From a virus (lineage: Duplodnaviria; Heunggongvirae; Uroviricota; Caudoviricetes), in IMG/VR virus record IMGVR_UViG_2636415906_000001: a stretch of 18,744 nt of DNA. One strand, written 5' to 3'. A program made the position numbers and the translations under genes. Under the pieces are notes generated by a model. It ran no database searches. It saw only the letters and a program-made list of their open reading frames with translations, and was not told where the DNA came from. Below are positions 1-15,708 of the stretch, one piece after another; within the stretch, counting starts at the first letter, position 1; every line of letters begins with the position of its first letter.

Positions 1-603
1 CTATTTCTTCTCTGTAATTTTTACACTGTTTTCCAACTGCTTGATGCTGACCTGCGGGGTCGGCAACTCCTCAGGCATGGTTCCGCCAAGTTCCTGAATG
101 GTTTGCCTCACCTTGCTACCCACGTCAAAGTGTGTGGTATTAGCTTGCTGTGCTGCCTCAACCAATTGTTTGTTATGTTCTTTCAACTCATTTCTCAGAA
201 ACAGACGCTTTTCGTCTTCACGAAGTTGCTTAAATGCTTCATCGTCAGCAAGCTCCTGCCGTCGGGTCTGGATAGCAAAATAAGTCTGCCCTGCCGCAAT
301 GACCGGTTTCGCGGGGTCGCCGTTTTGTACTACCAGGTAACAGGCATAGCGGGAGAGTACGATGTCTTTTAATGCTCTTTTGGCATTTGAGCCAATTTTG
401 ACCATATCGAGGATCTCCTCGAAATGGTCATCAATTGTGTGACCACTGTTCTCACAGGCCTCTTTGGCGCGCGTTAATACAGGTATAAAGTGACGATACT
501 CTGAATAACCCAGTAGTTTCCCAAGTTGTCTTGCTGACCATTGTTCTGCTCCGTTTGCATTAATCAGTTTTATCTCTTCAAAAGGTTGATGATGTTCGTT
601 CAT
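1..603 (-). CDS. dinD: DNA-damage-inducible protein D (DinD/RhuM family); start taken at the internal ATG (MNEHHQPF...), ORF track extends to 615
   Basis: Complete ORF with stop at 1-3. The N-terminus MNEHHQPFEEIKLINANGAEQWSARQLGKLLGYSEYRHF matches my recollection of E. coli DinD. A perfect LexA box sits about 45 bp upstream. Length (200 aa) is shorter than I recall for K-12 DinD, so an internal deletion is possible. Confidence 0.75.
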   Translation of the reverse strand: MNEHHQPFEEIKLINANGAEQWSARQLGKLLGYSEYRHFIPVLTRAKEACENSGHTIDDHFEEILDMVKIGSNAKRALKDIVLSRYACYLVVQNGDPAKPVIAAGQTYFAIQTRRQELADDEAFKQLREDEKRLFLRNELKEHNKQLVEAAQQANTTHFDVGSKVRQTIQELGGTMPEELPTPQVSIKQLENSVKITEKK

Positions 604-648
604 TGCCCACTCCATGTGATATCGATTGCAAAGAAAGTAAATCTGTAA

Positions 649-1464: not shown

Positions 1465-1752
1465 TTACTGTCTCTGGCAATCTTTATCGCGATAACGCCT
1501 GAAGTACCCTCTCGCTTCCTCATCCATACCAAGAGCCGAATGAGTTCGCTTAACTGCCTGTCTTAAATCTCCGAATCTGTCTGTAGTTGCTGGTGGGCGT
1601 GCCGCCTTACGGATACATTCAGAGCGCCTGTTTGCTGCATGTTCACGTTCTTTATCGCCATTTGCCAGCATCATGACTTCTGCCCATCGTGCGGCAGCTC
1701 TCCGGTATAGCCCTTTTGACTCCAGCTCTTCAGCTTTCCTGTCCCTTATCAT
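1465..1752 (-). CDS. PerC-family transcriptional activator-like protein (95 aa)
   Basis: The motif AEELESKGLYRRAAARWAEVM resembles the conserved PerC-family core (AExLExxGL(W/Y)RRAAxRW) common in P4-like and prophage islands. Basic small protein. Family assignment is from memory. Confidence 0.55.
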   Translation of the reverse strand: MIRDRKAEELESKGLYRRAAARWAEVMMLANGDKEREHAANRRSECIRKAARPPATTDRFGDLRQAVKRTHSALGMDEEARGYFRRYRDKDCQRQ

Positions 1753-2011: not shown

Positions 2012-2467
2012 ATGGTCTTTGCAATGAGCAAATCTAATCTGGTCGCGTTCCGCATCCCATCTGAATTGCAGGATGAGTTTAATCGGTCTGTTCTCGCTTC
2101 TGGAGGGGATAAAACCTCCTGGCTTGTTGATGCGATTCGCATGAAGCTGGGGCAGCCGGAAAAGTCTATTGATTCACGAATGCTTGGGCTGGTGGAGCGC
2201 ATGGAAAAAGCCGCTGCGTCGCTTATTGCCGGAAAGCCGAACATCCCACCAAAACCATATAACGAAACGGCAGTTATAAAGATCATTGCCGATACCATCC
2301 AACAGGGATTTGATAATGGGCGTGTGATAGCTGAACGGATCAATGAAGCAGGCTATCAAACAAAAGCTGGTAAAGCGTGGGATAAAGATATTTACAGCGC
2401 GTGGAAGCGTCAGGGAAGCAATGCTGAAAAGTTATCAGTGGCGCTACATTCAGCGCCATCGCTATAA
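2012..2467 (+). CDS. Ribbon-helix-helix (Arc/MetJ/CopG-like) DNA-binding protein with a C-terminal extension; alternative start at ATG 2024
   Basis: N-terminus NLVAFRIPSELQDEFNRSVLASGGDKTSWLVDAIRMKL has the beta-strand plus two-helix pattern of RHH regulators. No clear Shine-Dalgarno, so the start is ambiguous. Convergent with the Abi gene, 1 bp apart. Confidence 0.55.
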   Translation: MVFAMSKSNLVAFRIPSELQDEFNRSVLASGGDKTSWLVDAIRMKLGQPEKSIDSRMLGLVERMEKAAASLIAGKPNIPPKPYNETAVIKIIADTIQQGFDNGRVIAERINEAGYQTKAGKAWDKDIYSAWKRQGSNAEKLSVALHSAPSL

Positions 2468-2468
2468 T

Positions 2469-3431
2469 TTATTCAATATCAAATAAATGCCTTGGGAAAC
2501 CGTTATTATCAGGTAATCCCATGGCTGTCAGGTTACATCCTGGTAAGTTAGGCTTGTTATCTACAAGGTTGGCAACTTTTTTTATCCAGTCAGATCCCGG
2601 TCCAATTTTTTTCACTAAAAACCATAACACAGCGATCATTCCGTACATTCTTTCGTACGCATCATCATTCATATTTAATTGCTCAAAGTACGGCTCATTT
2701 GGCAAAGGCATTAATCTTGGTTCGTTGACCTTGTTCCAGATGCGTGAATGGTGAGCGCACCGATTCCTTAGCACATTCATTGCGCTAAGCCAGTTTTGGA
2801 AGATAGCTCCATTGCCTGCCGCTATCCCTAGCCTAGATAGTATCCTGTTGCGATAGCTGTCTTTTAGCATCGCATAATACTTTGACATTAAGCCGAAGTC
2901 CCATACTTCAATAACCACCCAGAAAGGAAGACCTTCGTACTTGTTTTCATGCCATTTGATAAAGTCTTCGCGACTTTTAGCAATCTCGGCATTATGTTTA
3001 TTTATCCATTCTTCTCTGGCGCTTGGGCGACCATGGGAACGTGGTCTAAAGTGTTTTGGATTTATTAGCGAGTCATCAAGATATGCTAAAGGAGATATCT
3101 TACCAAGCTCATGAGCAATAACTGACCGAACATAAACCTCAATGCGTTCTAACGCATTCATCATCTGCAAACGCAGATTTTTATCGAATAAATAGAGGTC
3201 ATATACTGCGCGAAAATTAGTACCTGGACGAACCTGATCGAGTCTGGTTCTAATATTGTCTGTTGTTATATGGGGGATTCGGCAGGGGTACCAAAAGCCT
3301 GATAATCGGTAGTAGCCTACTTGTGAGATTTTCTTGATAGCATGTTCGCGATCTGGCACATCCATACCCCGAGACAGCAATAAATCGACAAGTTCATCAT
3401 ATTCTTTATGAACCTTAACCGGAACAGCCAT
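2469..3431 (-). CDS. Abortive-infection protein, Abi_2 family (AbiD/AbiF/AbiD1-like), 320 aa
   Basis: Abi_2 hallmarks as I recall them: N-terminal EYDELVDLLLSRGM...GYYRLSGFW and the central motif LRNRCAHHSRIWN. The gene is visibly AT-rich compared with the core operon. Confidence 0.85.
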   Translation of the reverse strand: MAVPVKVHKEYDELVDLLLSRGMDVPDREHAIKKISQVGYYRLSGFWYPCRIPHITTDNIRTRLDQVRPGTNFRAVYDLYLFDKNLRLQMMNALERIEVYVRSVIAHELGKISPLAYLDDSLINPKHFRPRSHGRPSAREEWINKHNAEIAKSREDFIKWHENKYEGLPFWVVIEVWDFGLMSKYYAMLKDSYRNRILSRLGIAAGNGAIFQNWLSAMNVLRNRCAHHSRIWNKVNEPRLMPLPNEPYFEQLNMNDDAYERMYGMIAVLWFLVKKIGPGSDWIKKVANLVDNKPNLPGCNLTAMGLPDNNGFPRHLFDIE

Positions 3432-3810
3432 ACAAAAGGTTTCCTACCTCCAGATACAAGAAGGCCCGGCCATAACAATTTCTCATCTAAGACAAGATAA
3501 AGCCAGGGGGCCGGGCTCAGTTGAGTGTAACTCTATCCGAAGTTATCCACATGTCAATGCACAGTTACTTAGGAAACTAACATAGGTACTATCATCACTC
3601 ACGAAAAACCACTATATGTGGTTTTTATTCATATCGTTATCCACTACAGGCTGTGTCAATAACTTTTACCTATTAATTGGGTAATTTCTACATTTTCCTA
3701 TGCTGGCTAGTTTCTCTACTGAAAAGTTGGCACTCCTTAATCGCTTTTCGGTTAATACTATCGGTCTTCATATTGCCAGCAGCATACGCCATCCGATAAT
3801 TTCGATGCTA

Positions 3811-4112
3811 CGCGCGCGTACTTGTCGCAAAATATCAGGCAAAGGCCAGATTCAGAACGTCGTGATAACCACCAGCACAACATGAGATGTCATGTAACAC
3901 GATTTATCACATCAGATACATGTGATTGGTGTACCCGCATAAAACATCGTCATAGCGCGTCCTGTGCGCATATACGCCGATAATCAACACATCACCACCA
4001 CTCTGTCTCGTGTAGAGAACAGTTTCATGGTATCCCCCGCCATCGTGTGCGTACTGGTCGGACGTAGTTGCAAAATTTTTTGCAACTGATACCCCTCGCG
4101 CGCGTACTTGTC
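3811..4112. repeat. Perfect 16-bp direct repeat cgcgcgcgtacttgtc at 3811-3826 and 4097-4112
   Basis: Read directly. The copies flank about 270 bp of non-coding DNA in the gap between the Abi gene and the membrane-protein gene. An inverted aatttcga/tcgaaatt pair lies adjacent to the copies. Confidence 0.7.
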
Positions 4113-4305
4113 TCGAAATTGGTGTTTTGCTGTGGCAGTGATATCAGAAAAATCTTCCTGTTTCACATAAAGCGGATATGCGCGTACTGTAACGGCCCCA
4201 TCAACTGGGAGCGGATTTGAAATCCCGACCCAAGCTATGTACCAAATGCCATGTCTTGGATATATGATGATTGCCATTCTAAACAAAGCTAAAGGGAGGG
4301 TTGGT

Positions 4306-4662
4306 GTGAGGGGGCAGGCAGTTATAATTATTTTGTTGGGTTTAATTGTCGCAAAGTTATACCCGACTTTATCGATGGTGTTTTTTGCCATTATTGGCGC
4401 AGCCATCTTTACTTATATCATTAAACATACCGCCTTGTGGTTCTATAAAATTGATATAGTTCAGAAGTTTGTACGTCCTGTGTCAATGTTATTACTAGCA
4501 TTAATACCAATTGGTGTTGCTTATGTAATTGATGTTTTTTACCCTTCGGACACTGAAAGGTGGTTGATAGTTTTGTATTGTTATATTGGTGTAGCTCTCT
4601 TTTGTGGATTTCATTGGTGTTTCGAAAAGATCAATGACTCTATTTCAAAGAATAAAGATTGA
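4306..4662 (+). CDS. Small integral membrane protein (about 118 aa, 3-4 predicted TM helices), GTG start
   Basis: Strong RBS AGGGAGG 5 nt upstream of GTG 4306. Hydrophobic stretches (IIILLGLIVAKL, FFAIIGAAIFTYII, LLLALIPIGVAYVIDVF, LIVLYCYIGVALFCGF). AT-rich. Ends 20 bp from the convergent 705-aa gene. Confidence 0.45.
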   Translation: MRGQAVIIILLGLIVAKLYPTLSMVFFAIIGAAIFTYIIKHTALWFYKIDIVQKFVRPVSMLLLALIPIGVAYVIDVFYPSDTERWLIVLYCYIGVALFCGFHWCFEKINDSISKNKD

Positions 4663-4676
4663 GGCCATCCGTGGCC
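4663..4676. terminator. Short GC hairpin (GGCCA-tccg-TGGCC) between convergent genes; possible weak bidirectional terminator
   Basis: 5-bp stem with a 4-nt loop exactly between the stop codons at 4660-4662 (plus strand) and 4682-4684 (minus strand). No clear U-tract. Confidence 0.2.
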
Positions 4677-4681
4677 ATTCA

Positions 4682-6799
4682 CTAGTCATTATCTGGATCA
4701 TTAGATAGCCAAGTAATGATGCCCAGTCTGGCGATGGTCCGTTTTTCCTGTTCAGGAAGAGAGTTAAAAAAACTCTTCCATTGAGGGGAGCGCCTGATAC
4801 GTGAATCAACAATGTGCCCAGGCGCTTTTCCGTGTAGATTTTTTACTGCGCTCTGGAAGGCTGGCGAGGCAATTAATTTATCCGCAGCATCAGCCGCCCC
4901 TGCTCCACCAGCTAATCGAGCTTTACTCGCCAATCTTGCTCCAATATCAGCCCCAGCAATGGCTCCAAGCGATCCAAAATGAGCGCCTACCATCGTGCCT
5001 ATTTTTTGAATGTGTTTTGCTGCTAGTTCGTATGGAGCTGTTACCCGATTAAATCTGTTTACAAACTCATTCAGCTTACCAGTAGATATTTCATGCGCTT
5101 TAGCATTTTTTATTGCTCTGGCAACTTTGTATACATCATATAGTCCGCTCATTGTTTCTTTTGGCAAATGTTCAGCCAAAGTCTTTAGCTGTCCACTGTG
5201 TTGCAAGTTTTGCCACCAATCTGCAAAGCCAGATGGATTAAAGTCGGCCCCACGCTTCCCAGAGGAAAGCATATCTCTTAATGCTGTTCCTACTAGCTCC
5301 CTTCGCAATGTTCTTGATGGAGTATTTTGCATAATCTCACGAAACCCTCTCGCATCACCTTTTGCCATAGATTGAAGAGAATTCGTTACTTTATACGCTA
5401 TATCCCCATTAAGTGTTTTCCCGCGAAGATTTACCATTTGCCTTTCTAAGTTTTTTCTCATAGCTACAAGGCGTTGTGCGACTTCGAAATCTCGCAAGTA
5501 TCCAGTATTGGATAAGACAGATTTTTGGTCTTCAGCTAAAGCTCCATATAGTCTTGATAGCGCTTCTTTATCAGCATCTTTGTATGGCCCCTGCTTTTTA
5601 TTTAGGGCATCACCAACTAAACGCCTTTGCCTGTTTAAATTTGCATACGTTAGGATGCTATCTGGGCCGGGGTTTATTGCTGTAAAAACTCGCTTTTCTA
5701 TTGGGTCAAGATTATCCCACCCTCCTAAATCATCAGCGATTTTTTCCAGCATAGTGCTTGTGTTATTTGCTTCGACTTTTGTTCTTGGTGATAGAGCGGA
5801 ATCAACACGTTTATATAACTGATCACTACGGTTTTTTAGTGCTTCCATTCTACTATTTATCTGATAAATATATTTTTCGCTCATAGCTAACGCATCTGGC
5901 GCACCAGCAACATCATCGATTATCTTGCCAGCACTAGAGGCTAATTCGCTTATTGCTTTATCTTCTTGAGCTTTTAACGCTGATCCTGTCCGTGACTTTA
6001 GGGCTTGCTCTACAGCTTGGTATTGCTCATTTCCTGATAAATGAGAAGGAAGAACTGAATCAACATGAAGCCTATTTGCAGCCTCAACAATTTCTTTCTG
6101 AGGTTTTAGATCTAGCCCTTCAAGCGAAGAGGCAAGATTTGGGTTGCCTTGTGCAGATAACTTACGAATTTTCTCTTCGGCAGGAGTAATCCCCTCAATA
6201 TCTGGAATCGAAGAAACATTCTTCTTGGTTAATTTCCCAGCTATTTTATTAATTGCAGGGCCAGCAAGTTCGGCTACAGGGCCAGCCACAGCGCCAATAG
6301 CAGCGCCGGAAGCAACATCGCTATTTGTTCCATTGGCTACAATAGCCCCTTCTCCAGCACCAAGCCCTGCGGCGGCAGCCAGTCTTGCCGCCCCTTTGGG
6401 AACCTGAGAAATAATCCCACCACCACTAACAAATGGCGCTGCTTGTCCAACGAACTCACCAACATCTTGTGCGGTTGATGGTTTTGCCGCTAACTTCTGC
6501 TGTAGAGACTGAATTGCGGCTTGCTCTTCTGGTGTCATATCCTGAAACAGGCCAACACCTTTACCAACATCCATCAATCCACTGAGAACGCCATACATAA
6601 AACGGTCGAAACCGTTAGCATTATTAACAACATTTTCCTGTCTGGAATTTTCCTCTGGTGAAACCAAAGGTGATTGCTGCTGTTCTGGTTGGGCATCAAG
6701 CACAAAACCATCAGGAAGCTGTGAACTATCAGGAAACTGTGAGTTATCAGGTTGTTCATCGAGCACAAAACCTTCCGGTAAGATTACATTTGCTGCCAT
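4682..6799 (-). CDS. Large hypothetical protein (705 aa): acidic repeat N-terminus, Gly/Ala-rich segment, coiled-coil-like middle; no recognisable enzymatic motif
   Basis: Long uninterrupted ORF with ATG start at 6797-6799, overlapping the upstream 451-aa gene by 16 nt (translational coupling). N-terminus LPEGFVLDEQPDNSQFPDSSQLPDGFVLDAQPEQQQ; AAAAGLGAGEGAIVANG...GAVAGPVAELAGP tract. No signal peptide or Walker motif seen. Confidence 0.8.
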   Translation of the reverse strand: MAANVILPEGFVLDEQPDNSQFPDSSQLPDGFVLDAQPEQQQSPLVSPEENSRQENVVNNANGFDRFMYGVLSGLMDVGKGVGLFQDMTPEEQAAIQSLQQKLAAKPSTAQDVGEFVGQAAPFVSGGGIISQVPKGAARLAAAAGLGAGEGAIVANGTNSDVASGAAIGAVAGPVAELAGPAINKIAGKLTKKNVSSIPDIEGITPAEEKIRKLSAQGNPNLASSLEGLDLKPQKEIVEAANRLHVDSVLPSHLSGNEQYQAVEQALKSRTGSALKAQEDKAISELASSAGKIIDDVAGAPDALAMSEKYIYQINSRMEALKNRSDQLYKRVDSALSPRTKVEANNTSTMLEKIADDLGGWDNLDPIEKRVFTAINPGPDSILTYANLNRQRRLVGDALNKKQGPYKDADKEALSRLYGALAEDQKSVLSNTGYLRDFEVAQRLVAMRKNLERQMVNLRGKTLNGDIAYKVTNSLQSMAKGDARGFREIMQNTPSRTLRRELVGTALRDMLSSGKRGADFNPSGFADWWQNLQHSGQLKTLAEHLPKETMSGLYDVYKVARAIKNAKAHEISTGKLNEFVNRFNRVTAPYELAAKHIQKIGTMVGAHFGSLGAIAGADIGARLASKARLAGGAGAADAADKLIASPAFQSAVKNLHGKAPGHIVDSRIRRSPQWKSFFNSLPEQEKRTIARLGIITWLSNDPDND

Positions 6800-8127
6800 T
6801 TTCCGTTCCTGTAAATGATTTTCTGACCAGTTTTAGGGTTGGTTGCCGTTGCGCCTTCTGATATTCCTCCGGTTGCCGCTTTTGCCTGTCCAGTGCCAGC
6901 CTGTGATGTAGGCTGCCCGGAAACATCGTCAAATAGCTTCGCTTTCCTTCTTTCAAGGCTTTTTCTTAGCCCCTGAGGAATAGTTTCTCCATATGTATCG
7001 AGATACTCGTCAACCTGCTGGTTAAACTGCTGCCCCATAGCATTGGCGTTGATTTTTGCGGCGTTAACAATGTTATCCTTTGCCTCCTGCGACAGGCCGT
7101 TTCCAGCATTAAGCTGGTCTATGTATCCTTTGATTTGTCCCCATATGCCATCAGACCGCATTACCTGAACCTGTTCGCCTTCACGAACGACTGACTGCGG
7201 GTCAAGAGATTTCATGTAGTTGAAGATAATCCCAAGTTGGGCAGCGCCAGTATTTACCTTGCTAAGGGCTTGCAGAGAGTTTGCCGCCGCTCTGACAGAG
7301 TTATAATTTTTGCCAAAATTGGTAATGTCAGAATTTAATCCCTTAATTAAGTCTGCTGACGGCTTACCTTTTTGCCCCAGCTCCATTAGCTTCAATCCCA
7401 TCTCATCTGAGTGAATTTGTGCTCGCTGAGCCCTGTCTAGTTGAGCGTTCTGGATATTTGCCCATCCTCTCGCGTTCTCCATGTCAGCCTGACGCATACT
7501 TTCATCCAGTCGCCCTTGCTCAAGTCGACGACCTTCCATTTGATCTTTGATATCGAAATACTTCTCATGACCGAGAGAAAACAGCGCCAGATTACCTGCG
7601 AAATGCTGGAAGCCCTGCGGGTCATTAACCTGCATTTCAGCAATAGTTTCTGGAGGGATACCTAAACGACGCATCTCCTGCTCATTATCCATCATGAACC
7701 TGCCAAATGCGCCCTGACCAAGCGATGAGGCTACCTGTGCTTTGAGCGCCAGATTGCCATAATCATCCCTTTGAGCATCATCGACATAACTCATCCCTTT
7801 ACGGACTTCCTCAAACTCTTCTGGGAATGCTGTAATAAGATTACGCATCTGCTCCCTGTCACCGGACGCATAAGCATCTGCATAACCTTTCTGGAATGCC
7901 GCTTTACGCTCCTGCTGTTGCTGCTGCTTATAAATATCAGCAACTCCAGCCAGACCACGAAGACCTGTCAGAGCAACGTTATTTGCACCTGATCGAGCCA
8001 GTTCATTGTTTTCGCGGATCAGACCAAGCGTTGCGTTAATGTCGCTTGCCTTTGGCGCATTCTCATTTTGCGTACCGATGCCAGCCAGAAAACCACCAGA
8101 ATTAATACCCTGTTGCCACGTAGCCAT
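6784..8127 (-). CDS. Hypothetical coiled-coil, Gln-rich protein (about 447 aa from ATG 8127; ORF track extends to GTG 8139)
   Basis: Long ORF; the ATG at 8125-8127 overlaps the stop of the upstream 57-aa ORF. QQQQQ run and low-complexity A/Q/N/G-rich sequence. No enzymatic motif recognised. Confidence 0.8.
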   Translation of the reverse strand: MATWQQGINSGGFLAGIGTQNENAPKASDINATLGLIRENNELARSGANNVALTGLRGLAGVADIYKQQQQQERKAAFQKGYADAYASGDREQMRNLITAFPEEFEEVRKGMSYVDDAQRDDYGNLALKAQVASSLGQGAFGRFMMDNEQEMRRLGIPPETIAEMQVNDPQGFQHFAGNLALFSLGHEKYFDIKDQMEGRRLEQGRLDESMRQADMENARGWANIQNAQLDRAQRAQIHSDEMGLKLMELGQKGKPSADLIKGLNSDITNFGKNYNSVRAAANSLQALSKVNTGAAQLGIIFNYMKSLDPQSVVREGEQVQVMRSDGIWGQIKGYIDQLNAGNGLSQEAKDNIVNAAKINANAMGQQFNQQVDEYLDTYGETIPQGLRKSLERRKAKLFDDVSGQPTSQAGTGQAKAATGGISEGATATNPKTGQKIIYRNGKWQQM

Positions 8128-8131
8128 AAAT

Positions 8132-8305
8132 TTACCCACGTCCAGTTAAAGTGTAAGCCAGCGCCTTATCCATTAATCCCCGAGCAATTTCGTGGATCGT
8201 TGGCGCAACTCCTACCTCTGATTTTTTACGCTGCTCCTCCTGAATTTTCTTTATCGCTTCCATTTGCTTCTCACTTATCAATACTGGCTTTACTGAAATA
8301 GCCAT
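8132..8305 (-). CDS. Small protein (57 aa, MAISVKPVLISEKQMEAIKKIQEEQRKKSEVGVAPTIHEIARGLMDKALAYTLTGRG), first gene of the operon; possibly RHH-like
   Basis: Below the ORF-track length cutoff; translated by hand. Strong RBS AAGGGGG 4-5 nt upstream of ATG 8303-8305. The stop overlaps the start of the 451-aa gene. Confidence 0.5.
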   Translation of the reverse strand: MAISVKPVLISEKQMEAIKKIQEEQRKKSEVGVAPTIHEIARGLMDKALAYTLTGRG

Positions 8306-8320
8306 AACGCCCCCTTATAA

Positions 8321-8344
8321 CTGTATAAAACAACAGTCATTATA
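8321..8344 (-). promoter_or_regulatory. Candidate SOS-regulated promoter: perfect -10 TATAAT (8339-8344, minus strand) followed by a LexA-like box CTGT-N8-ACAG (8321-8336)
   Basis: Plus strand aaCTGTATAAAACAACAGtc resembles known SOS boxes such as umuDC, and overlaps the predicted transcription start about 30 nt upstream of the 57-aa ORF. No convincing -35 was found. Confidence 0.4.
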
Positions 8345-8400
8345 GTTTCATAAAACGCAACATTCATCATTGTGATTGCAAAATATGAAACAAATAGCAC

Positions 8401-8433
8401 AAAAAAATGCCACCGTTCAGTAGCTGGTGGCAT
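8401..8433 (-). terminator. Rho-independent terminator for leftward (minus-strand) transcription
   Basis: 8-bp stem ATGCCACC/GGTGGCAT (8407-8414 with 8426-8433), 11-nt loop, followed on the minus strand by TTTTTT (plus-strand A-run 8401-8406). It separates the satellite core operon from the cargo operon promoter. Confidence 0.65.
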
Positions 8434-8803
8434 CGTTCTGTATGTCAGGTTTTGACAGTTTTTTTATGGACTCTAAAAACTATATTTATGGAGTCGCATT
8501 ACTCTTCACGGCAGGCGCTTTCCAGTTCTGCCCTTGCTTCTGGCTCCATTGGTAATTTGATTCGCGATCAGCTATGCGGATGGTTTGCTGAACAGGCATA
8601 ACAACATCTCAGAGGCTATTTTTTGAACTACGAAAATTTCGTAGTGCTCACCTTCAAAAACGTCACGCCCTTGTACACTGGATTTTACAAAAGTCTCGTA
8701 AAACTCTTTGCTGTTCTGGGCTATGTGCCAAACCGCAGCGAATACCTCCGTCTGCCAGATGAGCAAAACATACCTTATAAAGAAAATCGCTGTTTTTGCT
8801 GTA

Positions 8804-8902
8804 CCACCTGTACCACCATGTCACAAACCCTTGTGTGGCGCGGCCTGCAGGTGGTACAGGTGGGTAAAAATGACCTCTCCCCACCTGTACAGACCTGTAC
8901 CA
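8804..8902. repeat. Cluster 1 of the GGTGGTACAGGT(GG) motif in both orientations
   Basis: Copies read at 8804-8817 (rc), 8850-8863 (fwd), 8881-8892 and 8893-8902 (rc, partial), immediately downstream of the 245-aa gene. Confidence 0.75.
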
Positions 8903-8907
8903 TTTAT

Positions 8908-9645
8908 TTAATTTTTACCCATAGCAGCACATAATCCCTTTTTTGAAATATTGAAAAATGCGTTCATTCTTCCCGCTGGCTTAACCTTGTAGCCGCTTGC
9001 CACCATCGCCGCAATAAATGCTCCGTTGGGGATATAGTGCGGGTGATCACTGTGCTGGTGGTTTATCTGGTTATATCGCTCCACTTCATGCTTCAACGTG
9101 TCAGATGTGGGGTTATCCTGCGGGAAGCTCTCAATCTGGGCATTACTCATCCCGTTGTCTCTGATCCATCTCAGGCAGCTTTTCGCCGATACGATAAATG
9201 ACGGGTTATCAAGCGGGTTTTCCCAGTCCGCATTCCGGTTGTGGAGCGCCAGTCCGTCAAGGTTAAATTGTGGGTATTCAGCGGTAATTACTGTCACTGC
9301 GTGGCGGATTTCAGTTTCGTCACAACATGGCTCATCTCCCACACCAGCAGGGTAATAATCTGAACCACCGGGACTGATACAGCTTTTACCACTGAAAGGC
9401 CATTGCTTCGCCATTTCGGGTGTTGAGTGATTACCGTCGCTCCGTTCGCGCTGTGCCTCTGTCCACTGGCTGGCATATTCAGTAAATGAAACTCTTTGCC
9501 CCTGGCGCATCCAGTGCGCAATCATAATTAAAGTGCGTTCCAGACTTTGGATGTCGCCAGCATTCCCGCACTGTGTAGCGAAACTTTTTAATTCTTCGCG
9601 CTCCGTTCTGGTCATTCCCTGCAGTATGCAATAGTTATTGTTCAT
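8908..9645 (-). CDS. Hypothetical protein (245 aa)
   Basis: ORF overlapping the upstream 76-aa gene by 11 nt. No family recognised. Confidence 0.65.
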   Translation of the reverse strand: MNNNYCILQGMTRTEREELKSFATQCGNAGDIQSLERTLIMIAHWMRQGQRVSFTEYASQWTEAQRERSDGNHSTPEMAKQWPFSGKSCISPGGSDYYPAGVGDEPCCDETEIRHAVTVITAEYPQFNLDGLALHNRNADWENPLDNPSFIVSAKSCLRWIRDNGMSNAQIESFPQDNPTSDTLKHEVERYNQINHQHSDHPHYIPNGAFIAAMVASGYKVKPAGRMNAFFNISKKGLCAAMGKN

Positions 9646-9865
9646 GTTTTACCTCTCTGATTTCTGCTGCCATATCTGTTGGCTCTATACAGCCGTCCCG
9701 ACTTGCCACGCAGGGAATAATGATTTCAACGGTATCGCCGTCAATACACATTTCAACATTCGCCCATGCCGCAATGGGTAGCCAGTCTGAACGCCCCTCA
9801 AACCGTAGCTGCCAGCCAGAGGAAGAAGCTAACTGGCGCACTTTGTAAAATGGTGTGCTCATCAT
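9635..9865 (-). CDS. Hypothetical small protein (76 aa)
   Basis: ORF with GAGG about 10 nt upstream of ATG. First gene after the primase-proximal motif cluster. Confidence 0.55.
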   Translation of the reverse strand: MMSTPFYKVRQLASSSGWQLRFEGRSDWLPIAAWANVEMCIDGDTVEIIIPCVASRDGCIEPTDMAAEIREVKHEQ

Positions 9866-9915: not shown

Positions 9916-10012
9916 GGTGGTACAGGTCTGGTATAGGTAAGATATTGACCTGTACCACTATAACGCACTGTTTTTAATACTGAATTAGCAAAGTGGTATA
10001 GGTGGTACAGGT
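9916..10012. repeat. Cluster 2 of the GGTGGTACAGGT motif, between the primase stop and the next gene
   Basis: Copies at 9916-9927 (fwd), 9948-9958 (rc) and 10001-10012 (fwd), plus repeated GGTATAGGT. The same motif as cluster 1, about 1.1 kb away. Confidence 0.75.
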
Positions 10013-10041
10013 AAAAACGATCTTCTTGTAAAAAGACTATA

Positions 10042-12393
10042 TTAAAAAACATCATAACCCCCCATACCGATCAGACGGGCAAACGCAGCCTGTAGAACTC
10101 CGACCTCTGGTAGTTCGTAGAACACGCCATTCCCTCGGTCTGGTCTTCCATGCTTCACCAGCCCCATTTGTGCAAGTGATTTACCCAGTAGTGATCTGGC
10201 TGCTGGCTCTTTAAGCTTTTCCCCACGCTCAAGCGACCACGCTACAAATCGACTAACCATATCCTTTGCAAACAAACGGACTTCGCCATTAAACGGAGGT
10301 TCATTGATTAGCTCGCCATAAAGAAACAATTCAACGCCAGACAGCCCCAGCAAGATTTCTTCACGTAAGGCATCGGTCTGTGGCGCTCGTTGAGGGTCAA
10401 AACCTGAGAGATCCACCCCTTTAAGATGCCAAAGCAACTTTGCGGCACCGCCATCATTAAGCCAACTGTACAGCCGATCAAAATACTCCCGACTCTGTGC
10501 TTTTTCAGGAGATGGCTCAAGCACGAGATAGCGACGCTCTCTTATCCCTGCCTGTAATACCTGTGTGCTGTTACTGGCAAATATCAACCGGGCAAAATTC
10601 GGCATTGGTTCAGCATCAATTCCCTTGCGCTCAAGGTTAAACGTCGGTTCGCTAATAATCGCTTTAAGTCTGTCAGCTTCAGACGGCTTGTGGATCGTCA
10701 CTTCGTCAGCAAATACCAGTAGCTTGTTAGCAAGTATTGAATTGAAGCGCCCTGAAATATGTCCCGCCCCGTTAATGTGGGCGGCGTACTGCCCCAGTAT
10801 TTGCAGCAGCGGTTTAACCGTTGTGCCTTTCCCTGTGCCCGGGACAGATTTCATCACGATTGCCACGGACGGTTTTTCATCAGGCTTTTGGATAATGTGC
10901 GCCATCCACTGGATAAGATATTGGTATGCCTCCTCATTACCGGCACAGACAACCTGCAACAGGTGATTAAGGTATACCGTGCAATCTCCTTCAATTGGTT
11001 CCAGTGCCAGCCCCTCATACAGATTAAAAACATCGTCAGGGCATTTGTCTGGTACTGGATAAAATCCTACGCCTCCTGGCTTGTAGTTCTTCCCACTCCA
11101 TGACAGCCACGCCGATCCCGCCAGCTTTCTGGCGACTCTCGGTTTATGATGAAAATAATGCTGAAATTGTGATAAATCCTCGAAAACGTGCGATACACCG
11201 CCGGTTTGAGAAGGCTTTAGCGACACCACCTTGTGTTTCCCGCCGATGGTGACATGCGTAAACGTCCGGTTGATTTCTTCGAGGACAGCAATTTCATCAT
11301 CGCTTAACACCTCGCCAGAACTGATCTCATTCAGCGCCCCGACTGACTGTTTGTGATTTTTCACCTGCGCCCCTTTCCCCCGTGGCTGGTACATCGAATC
11401 TTTAAATGCTGCTGTGGCTGCCGCCAGCCCGTGTTGTTGGTGATAGTCGTTCCAGTCGGCTTTATAGTCAGTCGGTGGCAGAGACACCCAGCCAGCTACG
11501 GAAATAGCGGCCCTCTCTGCGGCATCTTTCCCCGTGTTGATCCCTCCACTTTCGGAGTTTCCTTGCTGGTGATCGTTATCTGCGGCAATGATGATTTGTG
11601 CCTGTGGATATGTTCTGCGCATGACTTCCGCTACTGGCAACAGGTTGCCAGCGTCGATTGCTGCCACTGTCATTGCGTCAGGGCGAATTAAATGGCACGA
11701 CAGGGCGGTAGCCACCCCCTCAGCAATTATGATGCTGTGAGGTCGTTTCTGTGCGTTTATGGCGTGATATGCCCCCCGCTTTGCTGAACCTGTCAGGAGT
11801 CTTTTTTCACCATGTGAGGTAATAGTCTGTGCTGCTGTTACTGCGCCGGATTTATCCACCAGCGCCAGCAACAGAGATCCATCGGGCAACACGGGGAATG
11901 TAAAATCACCTACCCCTTTCGCAACCAGATAATCAGATTTGCCGTTTACAGCCTTTCTGCGCATGTCATCAAACTGACGGGAAAACGTATCCCGTCTTTG
12001 TTGTTCGTCCTTCTCTGCCCTTTTCAGGCGCTCCTGTTCGCGTCGCTGGCGCTCGGTTTCCAGTTGTTCCCGTTTCTGGCTGGTGGCTTCTGGTGTTTCC
12101 GTTGTCCGGTAATCAATACCCAGAACATCAGCGGCAAGAAGCGCCGCCTCTGTTGTGTCGCAGTTATTTACGCGTTTAATTAAATCCAGCCCATCACCAG
12201 CGCCGCACTGATTACAGATGAAGCTACCGCGCCCGTTGTCATCGAACCGGAATCGATCTTTGCCCCCACATGCAGGGCAGGGAGCATGACGGCGCGGAGA
12301 GTCAGGGACATTTATGTTCAGGCAGCCCAGCACATGAGGCCAGTTGTTTTCAGACGCACTGATAACCTGACGGATAAGATCAATGTTTCGCAT
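10042..12393 (-). CDS. P4 alpha-like primase-helicase (zinc-binding N-terminus, TOPRIM primase, C-terminal P-loop NTPase/helicase), 783 aa
   Basis: Cys-rich motif CPACGG...CNQCG near the N-terminus; toprim-like IIIAEGVATALS and AADNDHQ; Walker A VPGTGKGT in the C-terminal half. This is the typical P4-family satellite replication protein architecture. Confidence 0.9.
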   Translation of the reverse strand: MRNIDLIRQVISASENNWPHVLGCLNINVPDSPRRHAPCPACGGKDRFRFDDNGRGSFICNQCGAGDGLDLIKRVNNCDTTEAALLAADVLGIDYRTTETPEATSQKREQLETERQRREQERLKRAEKDEQQRRDTFSRQFDDMRRKAVNGKSDYLVAKGVGDFTFPVLPDGSLLLALVDKSGAVTAAQTITSHGEKRLLTGSAKRGAYHAINAQKRPHSIIIAEGVATALSCHLIRPDAMTVAAIDAGNLLPVAEVMRRTYPQAQIIIAADNDHQQGNSESGGINTGKDAAERAAISVAGWVSLPPTDYKADWNDYHQQHGLAAATAAFKDSMYQPRGKGAQVKNHKQSVGALNEISSGEVLSDDEIAVLEEINRTFTHVTIGGKHKVVSLKPSQTGGVSHVFEDLSQFQHYFHHKPRVARKLAGSAWLSWSGKNYKPGGVGFYPVPDKCPDDVFNLYEGLALEPIEGDCTVYLNHLLQVVCAGNEEAYQYLIQWMAHIIQKPDEKPSVAIVMKSVPGTGKGTTVKPLLQILGQYAAHINGAGHISGRFNSILANKLLVFADEVTIHKPSEADRLKAIISEPTFNLERKGIDAEPMPNFARLIFASNSTQVLQAGIRERRYLVLEPSPEKAQSREYFDRLYSWLNDGGAAKLLWHLKGVDLSGFDPQRAPQTDALREEILLGLSGVELFLYGELINEPPFNGEVRLFAKDMVSRFVAWSLERGEKLKEPAARSLLGKSLAQMGLVKHGRPDRGNGVFYELPEVGVLQAAFARLIGMGGYDVF

Positions 12394-12405
12394 TCTGGCC
12401 CCCGT

Positions 12406-13008
12406 TTAGTGCGTCACTGGTGCTTCTGGGATGCCGTTTTCGTTTAGTTCGGCAATAAAGCTGTTGTGAAGATCGGCAAGCACTTCTCGCCCAAACGAAG
12501 TGAGTGTTCCCTGTTCGACATCGAACATGTTGCTGTAAAAAATGATGGCATTCTTTGTTCCGACATCAACACCATATTTCTCGATCATTGCGCCCTCAAT
12601 GTTGTTTGCCATAGCGAGGCGCTCTGCTACTGGATACAGCGGCATGGCGACGATGCCATTGGAATAAACAGAAACCACGGAATGATTGCCACTGTCATCA
12701 ATAATGCTGACGGTGCCGTTTTCCTTTCTCATTTCATTGATGAATGCTGTTGCTATCAGCCAGCGCCACATAATCACGTGATGCTGTGATGTGTAATCGA
12801 AATATCCCTGGTTGCCGCCATCGGCTATAGCGAGATGTATTGACATACCTTCATCTGGTTTATCGTCATAATCCCCGGCATCCAGACGATTTACGGCATC
12901 AATATATGAGACGGTCTCAACGCGTTCTGTCATGCCATCGTTGCTGCGGTGCATGATGTTTACGCCGTCAGGCGTTGCTTCTGCCTGGAAAGTTAAGAAA
13001 TTATTCAT
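12406..13008 (-). CDS. Hypothetical protein (about 200 aa from ATG 13008; ORF track extends to 13113)
   Basis: The ATG at 13006-13008 overlaps the upstream gene's stop by 8 nt. Located 12 nt upstream of the primase start. Confidence 0.6.
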   Translation of the reverse strand: MNNFLTFQAEATPDGVNIMHRSNDGMTERVETVSYIDAVNRLDAGDYDDKPDEGMSIHLAIADGGNQGYFDYTSQHHVIMWRWLIATAFINEMRKENGTVSIIDDSGNHSVVSVYSNGIVAMPLYPVAERLAMANNIEGAMIEKYGVDVGTKNAIIFYSNMFDVEQGTLTSFGREVLADLHNSFIAELNENGIPEAPVTH

Positions 13009-13222
13009 GTTTCGCCTCGCCTGAATGATTCTGTAACTCATATTTGCCCAACAATTCGTCTGCTTCCTGAATAGCTTCTGGTACGCCATTGAGCAGTGAC
13101 ATAACCGCGCCAATCATTAACTTGTCTCTGTTGCTGGGGCTGGCCCCTTCAAGCCAGAACCCTAAAACAGCCTGAACCTGTTCGATGCGACATTGCGCTT
13201 CAATGAGCTGGATGTTGGTCAT
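13001..13222 (-). CDS. Hypothetical small protein (73 aa)
   Basis: ORF with a 4-nt ATGA-type overlap with the upstream gene; part of the coupled operon. Confidence 0.55.
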   Translation of the reverse strand: MTNIQLIEAQCRIEQVQAVLGFWLEGASPSNRDKLMIGAVMSLLNGVPEAIQEADELLGKYELQNHSGEAKHE

Positions 13223-13482
13223 TTCGCACTCTCCGCATCGATTAAACTGATATCTATCAGGGAGGTAACTTTTTGTAGCCAGCTATTGATTACTGTCGCC
13301 TGTTCCCCTCCCACCGAGGGAATAATCTCATTCATCACATGAACCAGACCTGTGCGCGCTCTGGTAAGCCGTTCAGTCGCGCAATCTGCGGGAGTGAATG
13401 TGTCTGGATATGGCTCTTCGCGCCCCAGCAATGATTCAATTTCCAGCTCACACGGATGACGATAAATTAAGTTGATATTCAT
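13219..13482 (-). CDS. Hypothetical small protein (87 aa)
   Basis: ORF with GGGGGTG RBS 5 nt upstream of ATG; 4-nt overlaps with both neighbours. Confidence 0.55.
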   Translation of the reverse strand: MNINLIYRHPCELEIESLLGREEPYPDTFTPADCATERLTRARTGLVHVMNEIIPSVGGEQATVINSWLQKVTSLIDISLIDAESAK

Positions 13483-13673
13483 TTTTCACCCCCAAGAATT
13501 ACCAGCTCGGCACGGGCATCGTTAACCAAAGATGAGCACGCTTTAATCGCATCCACGACATCAGCAGCGTCCATTTCTTCAGCCGAAAGACTGACAGCAA
13601 CCAGGACATCCGCTGCTTGCTCGATTAATTGAAGTGCGGACGTAAGGCGAGGGGTATTAATTGAGTTATTCAT
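13479..13673 (-). CDS. Hypothetical small acidic protein (about 64 aa from ATG 13673)
   Basis: The internal ATG at 13671-13673 overlaps the stop (13666-13668) of the upstream 342-aa ORF; the ORF track's longer version would overlap that gene. Confidence 0.5.
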   Translation of the reverse strand: MNNSINTPRLTSALQLIEQAADVLVAVSLSAEEMDAADVVDAIKACSSLVNDARAELVILGGEK

Positions 13674-14694
13674 TGGTTGCCCCCGTTTTGCATGGCATTT
13701 GTCCACCTTCCAGCAGGAAATGAACGTCACGAACGGCGAGATCCAATATCGCGAGTAACGCCTTCAGCCTTTCGTCTCGTGAGGGAGAGTTGCTCACCAG
13801 AATGTCGTTAATCACTTCTGTCAGTGTGATGATCTGGCTTGTGCGTTCGAGGGGATCCATATGCACATCGTAGGTTTTAATCATGTGCCACCTCCATGCG
13901 GATACGACCAGCAAAAAAGCAGACGTGATCGCGCACCAGAGAACGGCGAGCATCGCGTTCAGACTCGGCAGCAATATGATGAATTTTGGCGGTAATTGTC
14001 GGGCAATCGCGGCGAACTGCGGCGATAATCCAGATAAATTGCGGTTTTTGGGTAGGGGTAGTAGCCAGCATGTGGCAGCCTCCTTGATTGATGGTTTATA
14101 GCCACCGCCCAAGAGACCAATCTTGCTGGCGGTGGACTGTACGGAGTTGGCCTTACTGGCAATCAAGGAAACCAGCCTACCCGAAGGTAGCCCCATACAG
14201 CCCACCATTGATAAGGTGTGCGTGTGCGCCGATACAAAAAAAGACGCTGGCGCGTCATGTATCGCCTCGATTGTCAGCGGGAGGCCAATCCCGGCACCCG
14301 TTTTATGAGGTGCCTTATAACCATAAACCGTGTTGCCGCATAACGGCAAGCTCTTTTTTATGGACTCCGAAAACTCACTATTGGAAGAACCAGAAGCACA
14401 GTACATCGCGCTCATTTCGTTAACGTCACGCGCATGGACGAAGGTTTTTGTGGAGTCACTACGCGAGAAGAGAAAGCCATCTACGACCAGAAATTCTCTG
14501 GCGCAGCCGCTGACCTTCTCAACGCTAACACCATCGACCGTAATTTCTGACATGGTTAAGGCATCCGCTCCTACCACCAGCAAATGACAAACTTTGCTTG
14601 TATCTGCTGTATTAATGCCTGACTTTGCTGTCATATTGCTGGATTTTGGCGACATACCAGCCAGTGAAAATATCTTCTTCTGGACGGTTAGCAT
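13666..14694 (-). CDS. Hypothetical protein (342 aa); Ser/Thr/Gly-rich N-terminal two-thirds, hydrophobic segment, C-terminal helical tail
   Basis: Long uninterrupted ORF with GGAGG RBS 8 nt upstream of ATG 14694. No family recognised. Composition changes along its length, so a sequencing frameshift or fused domains cannot be excluded. Confidence 0.5.
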
Positions 14695-14870
14695 TTGTTA
14701 ACCTCCGCGAACTCCTTCATGAAACGTGCCAGCGGTTGTACGCATGGCGATTGATACCCGTCGCGATAAAACGTCACTCGGTTGTGAGACACGCTTTCGA
14801 CAGTAACGAGTGCTCCGTGGGCACCTTTGTAGCGTTTTTGTGGTTGTGGTGTTCCTGTCGGCTTAAACAT
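14688..14870 (-). CDS. Hypothetical small protein (60 aa, [60 protein letters not shown])
   Basis: GGAGG RBS 7 nt upstream of ATG 14870. The start overlaps the AntA-like gene's 3' end by 8 nt and the stop overlaps the next gene's start. Confidence 0.45.
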   Translation of the reverse strand: MFKPTGTPQPQKRYKGAHGALVTVESVSHNRVTFYRDGYQSPCVQPLARFMKEFAEVNKC

Positions 14871-15696: not shown

Positions 15697-15708
15697 TTTC
15701 AGTCTCCG

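Follow-up and report, generated by a model that had tools for sequence, protein, structure and literature searches.

The DNA analysed here (the window, 18,744 nucleotides; IMG/VR virus record IMGVR_UViG_2636415906_000001) contains three ORFs of 57, 451 and 705 aa, all on the minus strand, which agrees with an initial annotation that placed three co-directional genes behind one promoter. The short leader gene lies at 8132–8305, and the 705-aa gene at 4682–6799. The middle gene spans 6784–8139 as the longest ORF (451 aa, GTG start). Its start in RefSeq and in every phage homologue, however, is the ATG at 8127, which gives a 447-aa product (6784–8127). The 8-nt overlap that had been described between the first two genes appeared because the longest ORF, from the GTG at 8139, was taken; with the ATG start it is replaced by a 4-nt gap behind the leader's stop codon. 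The 16-nt overlap between the two large genes was confirmed and is identical in phages Kapi1 and E212.

Judging from its family matches, the 451-aa ORF is a P22 gp20-type ejection protein. It matched PF16928 (Inj_translocase; E 3e-73, with a score of 246 bits where the cut-off is 29.7) over profile positions 1–208 of 218 and phrog_917 (E 3e-132), and is 74% identical to the gp20 of phage Kapi1. The gene is mosaic along its length and lies directly upstream of the 705-aa ORF, which homology identifies as a gp16-type ejection protein of P22-like phages. The latter matched phrog_6704 (E 1.4e-174) and, by blastp, Kapi1_058 (E 4e-147), both over residues 1–701, as well as phrog_770 'DNA transfer protein' (E 1e-50). 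Identity to Kapi1 gp16 is 41% over the full length but about 98% over residues 1–150, and identity to Sf101 is 63% over residues 204–701. No similarity was detectable to P22 gp16 itself, which is consistent with the several gp16 sequence types that are known. Searches with tblastn and blastp returned full-length matches to Lederbergvirus gp20 and gp16, with the same gene order and 16-nt overlap, and positions 6279–7545 of the window share 89% nucleotide identity with Kapi1. The acidic-repeat N-terminus and Gly/Ala tract noticed earlier in the 705-aa protein are real features, and the repeat LP(E/D)GFVLD-QP and the tract recur nearly residue for residue in Kapi1 gp16. The initial annotation had called all three proteins unrecognisable. 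This no longer applies to the two large ones (Pfam and PHROG E values of 1e-73 to 1e-174), whose family matches bear out its remark that their composition recalls phage internal or ejection proteins.

For the leader the description stands: no match was found in Pfam, PHROG, NCBIfam or PDB profiles, nor in a Foldseek fold search, and no phage homologue was found. Its predicted structure (pLDDT 74) has an extended N-terminus followed by two helices, a shape compatible with RHH proteins though without a Pfam, PDB-profile or Foldseek match. The protein is characterised by the motif VKPVL-x-Q-x-I-x-E...GVAPTIHEIARGLMDKAL and by dN/dS values of 0.07–0.13. The leader gene and its promoter are a conserved backbone component of an island family: both occur in 503 of 5,426 E. 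coli genomes, and 10 further genera have islands that carry them.

Upstream of the leader, on the minus strand, an intrinsic terminator (8409–8424; GCCACC...GGTGGC hairpin and a run of seven T) ends the replication/ori region, where a terminator had been proposed; it is also kept in E. coli islands (alignment A1). The leader-operon promoter has the perfect TATAAT reported previously, read on the minus strand at 8339–8344 and shared by 21 of 24 promoters of the family that were compared. Its -35 element is weak (ATGAAT, 3/6), and the promoter was not called in a sigma-70 scan. Conserved TTTCAT...TGCAAT...ATGAAAC motifs lie upstream of the -10 hexamer, at about 8345–8392. Directly after TATAAT, and spanning the predicted transcription start, comes a LexA-type SOS box, GACTGTTGTTTTATACAGTT (8319–8338, minus strand), whose CTGT-N8-ACAG core at 8321–8336 is where it had been described. 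Two such cores occur in the window against 0.23 expected by chance; the second (649–664) is immediately upstream of the known SOS gene dinD. Scoring the box against a LexA position weight matrix, as the initial annotation proposed, gave roughly 18.0, with a heterology index of about 6.2; both values are approximate and fall within the range of a training set of 24 E. coli SOS boxes.

The arms of the box are conserved while its spacers diverge across E. coli, Serratia, Pantoea and Lonsdalea. These features suggest that the operon is putatively under LexA/SOS control, such that LexA would bind at the start site and expression would rise on induction. This control is not family-wide, since the full canonical box is present in 10 of the 24 family promoters and the other 14 carry a 15-nt variant, CTGTATAAATATCAGG, which is one nucleotide short and whose right arm overlaps the ribosome-binding site.

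The surrounding island is an EcCIMP1-like PICI, a published family. Its backbone order (int, AlpA, AntA, Ash, small ORFs, primase, leader, PerC) is common to EcCIMP1 and relatives and bears out the earlier placement of the locus in a phage satellite. EcCIMP1 itself is a PICI of E. coli MP1, and its mobilising phage is the P22-like vB_EcoP_Kapi1 (Pick, Stadel & Raivio, ISME J 2025; PMC11773190). The label 'P4-like' does not hold in the strict sense, because a Pfam scan of 19 ORFs of the window found no sid, psu or delta families. The operon does occupy an exchangeable slot, as had been suspected: the cassette flanks (3746–4368 and 8157–8707) are 93–97% identical in other islands. Upstream of the terminator, CCACCTGTACC(ACC) repeats cluster at 8799–8902, some in one orientation and some in the other; they are candidate replication-origin iterons, a reading suggested only by their position downstream of the primase region.

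On the other side of the operon, a 19-nt gap holds a GGCCA-N4-TGGCC hairpin (4663–4681), likely a bidirectional terminator between the gp16-type gene and a convergent plus-strand gene (4267–4662) for a small membrane protein of 131 aa with about four hydrophobic segments. The latter gene occupies the place that sieA has after gene 16 in P22. In sequence its product does not resemble SieA of P22 (type A), and no phage homologues of it were found. Its N-terminus is common to the equivalent gene of the 83972-type island. The protein is not conserved in Serratia or Klebsiella islands.

The contents of the slot were compared at 24 loci, and in all 24 the leader is followed by envelope-penetrating or DNA-delivery virion proteins. 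The slot held gp20/gp16 of the P22 type, accompanied at some loci by gp14/gp7; a set of three internal virion proteins of podovirus kind; a complete tape measure protein; the baseplate hub and gpV spike of a myovirus; or an injection-transglycosylase-like protein. At the Rahnella and Raoultella loci a small terminase follows. One slot has been filled from four virion architectures in 11 genera. The copies inside Serratia islands are under purifying selection (dN/dS between islands of 0.04 for gp20 and 0.11 for gp16). With 87 genomes at ≥99% identity, the window-type allele is close to clonal, so its intactness alone says little, and the evidence for selection comes from the Serratia copies.

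These observations bear on the proposal that the operon is an undescribed, SOS-controlled defence or toxin system of large non-enzymatic proteins. The module does adjoin an Abi gene that matches AbiD in PADLOC, where the island gathers its defence genes, and the lack of a match to any known defence family would by itself leave room for novelty. Nevertheless, PADLOC-DB gave no match for any of the three operon proteins or for the membrane protein, both large proteins are confidently assigned as ejection proteins of the P22 gp20/gp16 type, and the slot consistently holds virion DNA-delivery proteins, sometimes a small terminase, rather than defence genes. We therefore regard such a system as highly improbable, and the candidate system of the initial annotation is not upheld.

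Another possibility is that the operon has no function, either as a neutrally carried fragment of a P22-like prophage or as a homology patch kept only for helper recombination. It is true that the genes are mosaic with Kapi1-like phages, as in the 89%-identical segment, that the window-type allele is almost clonal, and that a few copies bear IS insertions. Against this, the ORFs are intact and full-length, they stand behind a conserved promoter and leader of their own with no other virion genes, island copies are under the selection noted above, and the same slot accommodates functionally equivalent proteins from several architectures and genera. We consider a functionless passenger very unlikely. 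The initial annotation had coupled homology to known phage virion proteins with a prophage remnant; the homology was found, but the module is not a remnant, because no other virion genes accompany it (capsid, tail and lysis genes were not found in the island), its promoter and leader are conserved across genera, and purifying selection acts on it inside islands.

While the locus itself belongs to a known kind of island, the cross-genus pattern is the new part. We tentatively suggest, as a possibility to which we give somewhat less than an even chance, that EcCIMP1-like PICIs of Enterobacterales share a promoter–leader 'socket' that is LexA-wired (SOS) in E. coli and Serratia and that takes up the genome-delivery device of whichever temperate phage is parasitised, be it the ejection proteins of P22, the internal virion proteins of podoviruses, the tape measure proteins of siphoviruses or the hub and spike of myoviruses. 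The satellite would thereby replace the part of the hijacked virion that crosses the recipient cell's envelope, most likely to evade superinfection exclusion or host-factor requirements, which would act on exactly the swapped proteins. If true, this would add an undescribed strategy to those of satellites, as distinct from capsid remodelling or packaging redirection.

For the operon in the window, the best explanation is helper exploitation, in which an EcCIMP1-like PICI that parasitises P22-like temperate phages supplies a matched gp20/gp16 pair; we would put this at about an even chance. In an undamaged cell, LexA on the start-site box would keep the operon off. DNA damage would cleave LexA and simultaneously induce the resident P22-like helper prophage, and the island would then produce its own gp20 and gp16. 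These proteins may enter helper procapsids in place of their helper counterparts or together with them, and at the next infection would be ejected and build the periplasmic and inner-membrane conduit for the packaged DNA. The satellite would in this way govern the DNA-delivery step of the particles that carry it. The most likely benefit would be entry into cells in which the helper's ejection-protein type works poorly or meets a block such as SieA-type exclusion in lysogens. Both the entry of the island proteins into virions and an advantage for the satellite are inferred. As to why a pair is carried, in P22 gp16 and gp20 have to match each other, gp7 can be exchanged, a foreign gp16 is still built into virions, and SieA-escape mutations map to gp16 and gp20 (PMC10883804). 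A different allotype also speaks for this reading: EcCIMP1 has a gp20 with 26% and a gp16 with 24% identity to their counterparts in Kapi1, its proven helper. Several observations count against helper exploitation: neither gp14, gp7 nor a recognisable small terminase was found in the window's island, EcCIMP1 is transduced at very low frequency with Kapi1 titres unchanged, and a Kapi1-like prophage is present in only 2 of 21 EcCIMP1 strains (PMC11773190).

A rival reading is that divergent island gp20 and gp16 act as poison subunits. They would enter the virions of a P22-like phage, induced or infecting, and mismatch the phage's own proteins so that particles fail in DNA delivery, a population-level block with an outcome like that of tail-assembly inhibitors. 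P22 carrying only gene 16 or only gene 20 of Sf6 yields no plaque-forming phage, yet Sf6 gp16 is assembled into particles (PMC10883804). Island and helper alleles differ greatly in sequence, and satellites commonly interfere with their helpers, with Tai systems adjoining pri in PICIs (PMC11364771). However, EcCIMP1, despite the 24–26% identity of its gp20 and gp16 to the Kapi1 proteins, leaves Kapi1 titres after induction undiminished, the satellite's own particles would be equally poisoned, and what the island retains is not one subunit but both, matched and full-length. Poisoning is in our judgement unlikely.

Superinfection exclusion or immunity is a further reading, according to which the conduit of an incoming P22-like phage would be blocked in the resident cell by the gp20 and gp16 homologues or by the membrane protein encoded convergently. 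EcCIMP1 confers additional immunity to superinfection by Kapi1, and known defence systems were not detected in this island, but the phenotype was seen only in lysogens and mapped to no gene (PMC11773190). SieA acts on gp16 and gp20 (PMC10883804), and the membrane gene has the position of sieA, convergent with gene 16. That protein nonetheless has no similarity to P22 SieA and is not conserved in the Serratia and Klebsiella islands, gp20 and gp16 lack export signals and normally reach the envelope via the tail, and a LexA-repressed operon would be off in the very cells, healthy ones, that need exclusion. We find this reading improbable and retain helper exploitation as the preferred one.

EcCIMP1 is among the closest known systems. 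The window's island and EcCIMP1 both carry, in the same order, AlpA, a 143-aa protein, AntA, DUF4222, Ash/Icd, small ORFs and a primase, followed by about 600 bp of non-coding DNA, the leader, ejection-protein genes, accessory genes and PerC. The leaders are 87% identical, and the promoter, box and flanks 93–97%. The two differ in integrase and site (yicC/dinD in the window, tRNA-Thr/proA in EcCIMP1) and in primase (DUF5906 and DUF927, respectively). EcCIMP1 encodes gp14, gp7, gp20 and a 906-aa gp16 with an SLT domain, whereas gp20 and gp16 are the only ones in the window; identity between the gp20s is 25%, and no similarity is detectable between the gp16s. The window adds genes of 245 and 76 aa after the primase, plus AbiD. 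EcCIMP1 excises only on induction of Kapi1, which transduces it. Its authors saw a resemblance of EcCIMP1_017-019 to 'DNA transfer proteins' and to proteins with DUF2824 and guessed at a packaging role, without mention of LexA, and they identified no phage structural genes (PMC11773190).

P22-like phages (Lederbergvirus) share with the window full-length gp20 and gp16 homologues, their gene order and 16-nt overlap, the mosaic pattern of variation, and, in P22, a convergent small membrane gene after gene 16. In contrast, the window genes stand outside a phage late operon, with no coat, portal, tail, gp14 or gp7 genes, and have their own promoter, SOS box and a leader that lacks a phage homologue.

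P4-like satellites have Ash/Icd-type genes, an AlpA-type regulator, a C4/CI-type antisense RNA (Rfam RF01695) and an alpha-like primase with Zn-ribbon and Toprim domains in common with the window's island. Their helper is P2, unlike the P22-like podovirus type here, and they have capsid-size determinants where this island has ejection proteins. A precedent for such regulation is the packaging and interference operon I of staphylococcal PICIs (SaPIs), a LexA-repressed satellite operon that acts on helper virion assembly and is switched on with SOS induction of the helper (PMC5052747). Some SaPIs also have a homologue of a helper structural protein, the capsid-protein homologue Ccm (PMC8569155). 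LexA control has been demonstrated for operon I and is predicted for the window operon. Operon I contains terS, cpmAB and pti genes and targets capsid size and packaging, whereas the window operon encodes ejection proteins and would target DNA delivery.

The three open reading frames of the operon (57, 451 and 705 aa) were recovered as the initial annotation had described them, with one start-codon correction for the 451-aa ORF. Its view that the two large products are unrecognisable did not hold, as Pfam and PHROG matches identified the 451-aa protein (6784-8139, minus strand) as gp20-type and the 705-aa protein (4682-6799, minus strand) as gp16-type. Specifically, the 451-aa protein matched PF16928, the 'DNA/protein translocase of phage P22 injectosome' (gp20; E = 3e-73), and phrog_917 (E = 3e-132), and along its entire sequence it shared 74% identity with gp20 of Escherichia phage vB_EcoP_Kapi1. 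The 705-aa protein matched phrog_6704 end to end (E = 1.4e-174) as well as phrog_770 ('DNA transfer protein'), and its alignment with Kapi1_058, which Kapi1 gene 16 encodes, spans the full protein (E = 4e-147); the acidic repeat (LPxGFVLD) and the Gly/Ala tract pointed out previously both align with Kapi1_058. PDB sequence searches with gp20 and gp16 returned no solved relative. With these ejection-protein matches, and no match to PADLOC defence models for the leader, gp20 or gp16, the earlier suggestion of a new defence system has no positive support.

The arrangement of the genes is also that of the phages, in which the order 14-7-20-16 is found (Kapi1, E212, ST104 and P22). The 16-nt overlap between gp20 and gp16 is real, and the same 16 nt are shared by genes 20 and 16 in Kapi1 and E212. 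The 8-nt overlap initially drawn between the leader (8132-8305, minus strand) and gp20 depends on an upstream GTG that gives the 451-aa form; RefSeq and every phage homologue start at ATG 8127 (447 aa), and therefore the two genes are most likely separated by a 4-nt gap. Both island proteins are mosaics of phage alleles. When compared with Kapi1, gp20 was 92-100% identical at residues 1-50 and 201-400 and 24-58% identical at residues 51-200, gp16 was ~98% identical at residues 1-150 and ~25% in the rest, and positions 6279-7545 shared 89% nucleotide identity.

No match to the 57-aa leader protein was found in Pfam, PHROGs, NCBIfam, PADLOC or the phage collection (tblastn), and a PDB profile search gave only noise. 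Its AlphaFold model (pLDDT 74) has an extended N-terminus followed by two helices, which is compatible with a ribbon-helix-helix fold, and Foldseek comparison of the model with the PDB returned nothing below E = 3.8. Comparison with gp7 ruled out that the leader is a gp7 fragment.

Upstream of the leader, an intrinsic terminator (hairpin and T-run) was located at 8409-8424 (minus strand), and the positions first assigned to a perfect TATAAT -10 (8344-8339, minus strand) and a CTGT-N8-ACAG core (8336-8321, minus strand) were confirmed. The core lies within a LexA-type box, GACTGTTGTTTTATACAGTT, directly 3' of the TATAAT, and a ribosome-binding site (AGGGGG) stands between the box and the leader ATG at 8305. 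The window holds two CTGT-N8-ACAG boxes, when 0.23 were expected from shuffles. The second (649-664) adjoins dinD, a known SOS gene, and can thus serve as an internal positive control. With a rough weight matrix built from 24 E. coli SOS boxes, whose scores are approximate, the dinD-proximal box scored highest in the window (26.9) and the leader-operon box ranked second (18.0), with a heterology index of 6.2 (range of the 24 training boxes, 0.9-9.3). The dinD ORF itself (1-615, minus strand) has this canonical LexA-type box just upstream and encodes 204 aa; K-12 DinD is ~274 aa long, and the window copy seems to be without an internal segment after ...EAAQQA. On the same approximate scale, the third-best LexA-like site of the window (TACTGTATGGGCAACCACTA, 16403-16422) scored 11.7, under the range of the known boxes, and has the left half-site only; it lies ~45 nt upstream of the alpA start.

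Among the 24 leader promoters compared across E. coli and 10 other genera, TATAAT was kept in 21, and most continued with the left half-site ACTGTAT (ATTGTAT in Leclercia and Pectobacterium). Canonical CTGT-N8-ACAG boxes (approximate scores of 18-21) were present in four E. coli-type and three Serratia promoters and in those of Pantoea sp. 1.19, Lonsdalea and P. coffeiphila. The spacers of canonical boxes differ (TGTTTTAT, GTCTATAT, ATAAAATA and ATAAATAA) while the arms stay canonical, which argues for selection on the arms. The remaining 14/24 promoters carry CTGTATAAATATCAGG, 1 nt short, with the right arm merging into the ribosome-binding site. LexA control is therefore not family-wide; as a prediction, it is well supported for the window and for related islands of E. 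coli and Serratia. PMC5052747, citing Ubeda et al. 2007, offers a direct precedent in operon I, the SaPI packaging module, which LexA controls. The leader promoter has a poor -35 and was not called by a generic promoter scan. Upstream of the -10 (8345-8392), the motifs TTTCAT, TGCAAT and ATGAAAC are conserved from E. coli to Raoultella, with TTTCAT and ATGAAA forming an inverted repeat ~33 nt apart. Together with the weak -35, these motifs suggest an additional activator, for which AlpA may be the obvious candidate.

The promoter and leader segment was detected in 503/5,426 complete E. coli genomes (~9%). In part of these carriers gp20 comes right after the leader, which is the arrangement of the window; in the others gp14-gp7-gp20-gp16 follows, as in strain 83972 and in EcCIMP1, the phage-inducible chromosomal island (PICI) of E. 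coli MP1. A survey of the kind first proposed for this slot showed that its flanks (3746-4368 and 8157-8707) are 93-97% identical to those of EcCIMP1 and 83972, whereas the cassette between them is completely different; the cassette thus behaves as an exchangeable slot. Beyond E. coli, 10 genera have leader homologues: Serratia, Klebsiella, Raoultella, Leclercia, Pantoea, Erwinia, Lonsdalea, Rahnella, Chimaeribacter and Pectobacterium. In all of them the leader lies downstream of the island primase, and in some PerC stands between the two.

We compared the content that follows the leader in 24 loci; in those of the 10 other genera, the delivery genes lie at ~10,000-18,000 of each locus. P22-type gp20 and gp16 follow in E. 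coli and Serratia, and three large podovirus internal virion proteins (phrog_1044/992, phrog_3003/1145 and phrog_684, one with an SLT domain) in Klebsiella, Leclercia and Pectobacterium; a phrog_418 'internal virion protein' is additionally present in the Leclercia island, and a Rap1a-like protein in those of Klebsiella and Leclercia. In Chimaeribacter, Pantoea, Erwinia, Lonsdalea and Serratia silvae, the leader is followed by a 108-aa protein and a tape measure protein. Most of these tape measure proteins are full length (PF20155) and share 59% identity with the one in Erwinia phage Midgardsormr38; the exceptions are Lonsdalea, where the gene is split into two ORFs, and S. silvae, where only an N-terminal fragment is left. 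Rahnella carries a baseplate hub and a gpV-type spike with an Apex motif, and Raoultella a protein of 605 aa whose C-terminus is injection-transglycosylase/tape-measure-like; in both, a small terminase then follows. All of these protein types exit the virion or pierce the envelope for DNA delivery.

Near-identical copies (at least 99%) of the window gp16 allele were found only in 87 E. coli genomes, its next relatives being prophage genes at 66% identity, and for this reason selection was estimated from island copies in Serratia. Between two Serratia islands, gp20 differed at 42 synonymous vs 7 non-synonymous positions (dN/dS 0.04) and gp16 at 62 vs 23 (dN/dS 0.11), and the leader gave dN/dS values of 0.07-0.13. 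A few copies of the window-type allele carry IS insertions. The conserved promoter and leader, the exchangeable slot, the consistent delivery-protein content and the low dN/dS all contradict the idea that the module is a prophage remnant carried neutrally. Judged from these comparisons, the module is a conserved feature of the island family and neither random cargo nor a remnant.

E. coli ACN001 has, between yicC and dinD, a 17.5-kb island identical to the window. Its order runs from an integrase, a 216-aa protein, an AlpA-type HTH regulator, a 143-aa protein, an AntA antirepressor, DUF4222 and Ash through several small ORFs to a Zn-ribbon/Toprim/DUF5906 primase and 76-aa and 245-aa ORFs. Next comes non-coding DNA that contains repeats and the terminator; the leader operon follows, and after it a membrane protein encoded convergently, AbiD, a 151-aa protein and PerC. 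Among the 19 window ORFs scanned against Pfam, none matched the sid, psu or delta families. Two Rfam RNAs, a C4-type antisense RNA (RF01695, 79 bits; 14125-14212, minus strand) and isrK (RF01394, 65 bits; 14237-14313, minus strand), lie within the 'ash family protein' ORF. Their presence suggests that an RNA immunity switch of the P1/P4 kind lies upstream of Icd/Ash and that the long 342-aa 'ash' ORF is over-called. The 245-aa and 76-aa genes (8908-9865, minus strand), between the primase and an ori-like region, gave no family match and are missing in both EcCIMP1 and the 83972-type island. Their position is that of the accessory region downstream of pri from which Tai tail-assembly inhibitors were reported in PICIs (PMC11364771). 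Repeats of CCACCTGTACC(ACC), in both orientations, are clustered at 8799-8902, between the 245-aa gene and the terminator; placed downstream of the primase region, they resemble origin iterons. The 151-aa gene (2012-2467, plus strand) adjoins AbiD (2469-3431, minus strand) and opens with an RHH-like motif (MSKSNLVAFRIPSELQDEFNR...GGDKTSWLVDAIRMKL). Proteins 54-76% identical to it occur near the far island end in at least nine genera; since islands conserve them whether Abi is present or not, the gene seems to belong to the backbone and not to be an Abi partner. The PerC-family protein (1465-1752, minus strand) is 100% identical to the copy in the E. coli 83972 island, and EcCIMP1_025, of the same PerC group, is reported to be a silencer, not an activator, of LEE1 expression.

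P22 injects ~12, 12 and 30 molecules of its gene 7, 16 and 20 proteins, respectively (PMC10883804). In Sf6 gene-swap hybrids, foreign gene 7 alone was tolerated, foreign gene 16 or 20 alone yielded no plaque-forming phage, and swapping all three gave essentially normal yields (PMC10883804), so that gp16 and gp20 function only as a matched pair. This need for matching would account for a minimal island module of exactly gp20/gp16. Foreign gp16 was still assembled into P22 particles, and mutations escaping SieA exclusion map to gp16 and gp20 (PMC10883804). What the genes are, how the operon is built, which island family it belongs to, and its conservation and selection were observed directly; the function is inferred, and the best model has four steps: SOS induction would remove LexA during helper prophage induction; the island would then make its own matched gp20/gp16 pair; the pair would be incorporated into helper procapsids; and the resulting particles would deliver DNA through the satellite's conduit. 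A possible gain would be entry into cells that exclude the helper's allotype. Several points stand against this sequence of events: EcCIMP1 transfers poorly, Kapi1 titres are unchanged and most EcCIMP1 carriers have no Kapi1-like prophage (PMC11773190), and the window island is without gp14, gp7 and a recognisable terminase. Poison-subunit interference, a less likely reading, agrees with the P22/Sf6 mismatch data but conflicts with the unchanged Kapi1 titres and would cripple the satellite's own particles too.

It is also possible that the module has a role in EcCIMP1 superinfection immunity. A small membrane protein with ~4 hydrophobic segments (4267-4662, plus strand) converges on gp16 across a 19-nt gap, exactly at the sieA position of P22, where gene 16 and sieA are in the same convergent arrangement. 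However, the protein has no similarity to P22 SieA, its gene is not conserved from one genus to another, and an operon repressed by LexA would be silent at the time exclusion is required. No phage homologue of the protein was found. Its first 33 residues share 79% identity with the counterpart in the 83972-type island, and the remainder diverges. Matches to Bax1-I and CBO0543 were weak, sub-threshold and reflect hydrophobic helices. As the Serratia counterpart is a different, single-pass protein and similarity to P22 SieA is lacking, a family-wide SieA-like partner cannot be claimed.

The window island shares the architecture of EcCIMP1, described in 2025, which excises only upon induction of the P22-like Kapi1 prophage and is transduced by Kapi1 at low frequency (PMC11773190). 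The EcCIMP1 leader is 87% identical to that of the window, and behind it lie DUF2824/gp14, a gp7 homologue, gp20 and a gp16 of 906 aa that includes a transglycosylase domain; the window has a reduced gp20/gp16-only module and another integrase, primase and integration site. The EcCIMP1 gp20 and gp16 share only 26% and 24% identity with those of Kapi1, its proven helper, and therefore the islands carry an alternative allotype and not a spare copy. The island family and its 'DNA transfer protein-like' genes are already published; the EcCIMP1 authors proposed a packaging role, identified no phage structural genes and did not mention LexA (PMC11773190). In the literature that we searched, there was no description of satellites encoding ejection proteins as a class, no clear identification of the island genes as the P22 ejection-protein set, no SOS box on the conserved leader promoter, and no cross-genus rule that the leader operon always comes with the helper's genome-delivery proteins. 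This rule would amount to a new satellite strategy if incorporation and benefit are confirmed experimentally, and the gp20/gp16 module is a direct experimental handle on readily testable biology. In these islands the ejection-protein genes carry 'hypothetical' annotations or give the island the appearance of a defective prophage, so that recognising the module improves annotation of prophages and satellites alike. Satellite-borne ejection proteins would, if true, also bear on the Kapi1-specific immunity of EcCIMP1. Satellites are known to steal capsids, shrink capsids, redirect packaging and steal tails; with a satellite that brings its own DNA-ejection proteins, genome delivery would, if this reading is true, be a new manipulated step.
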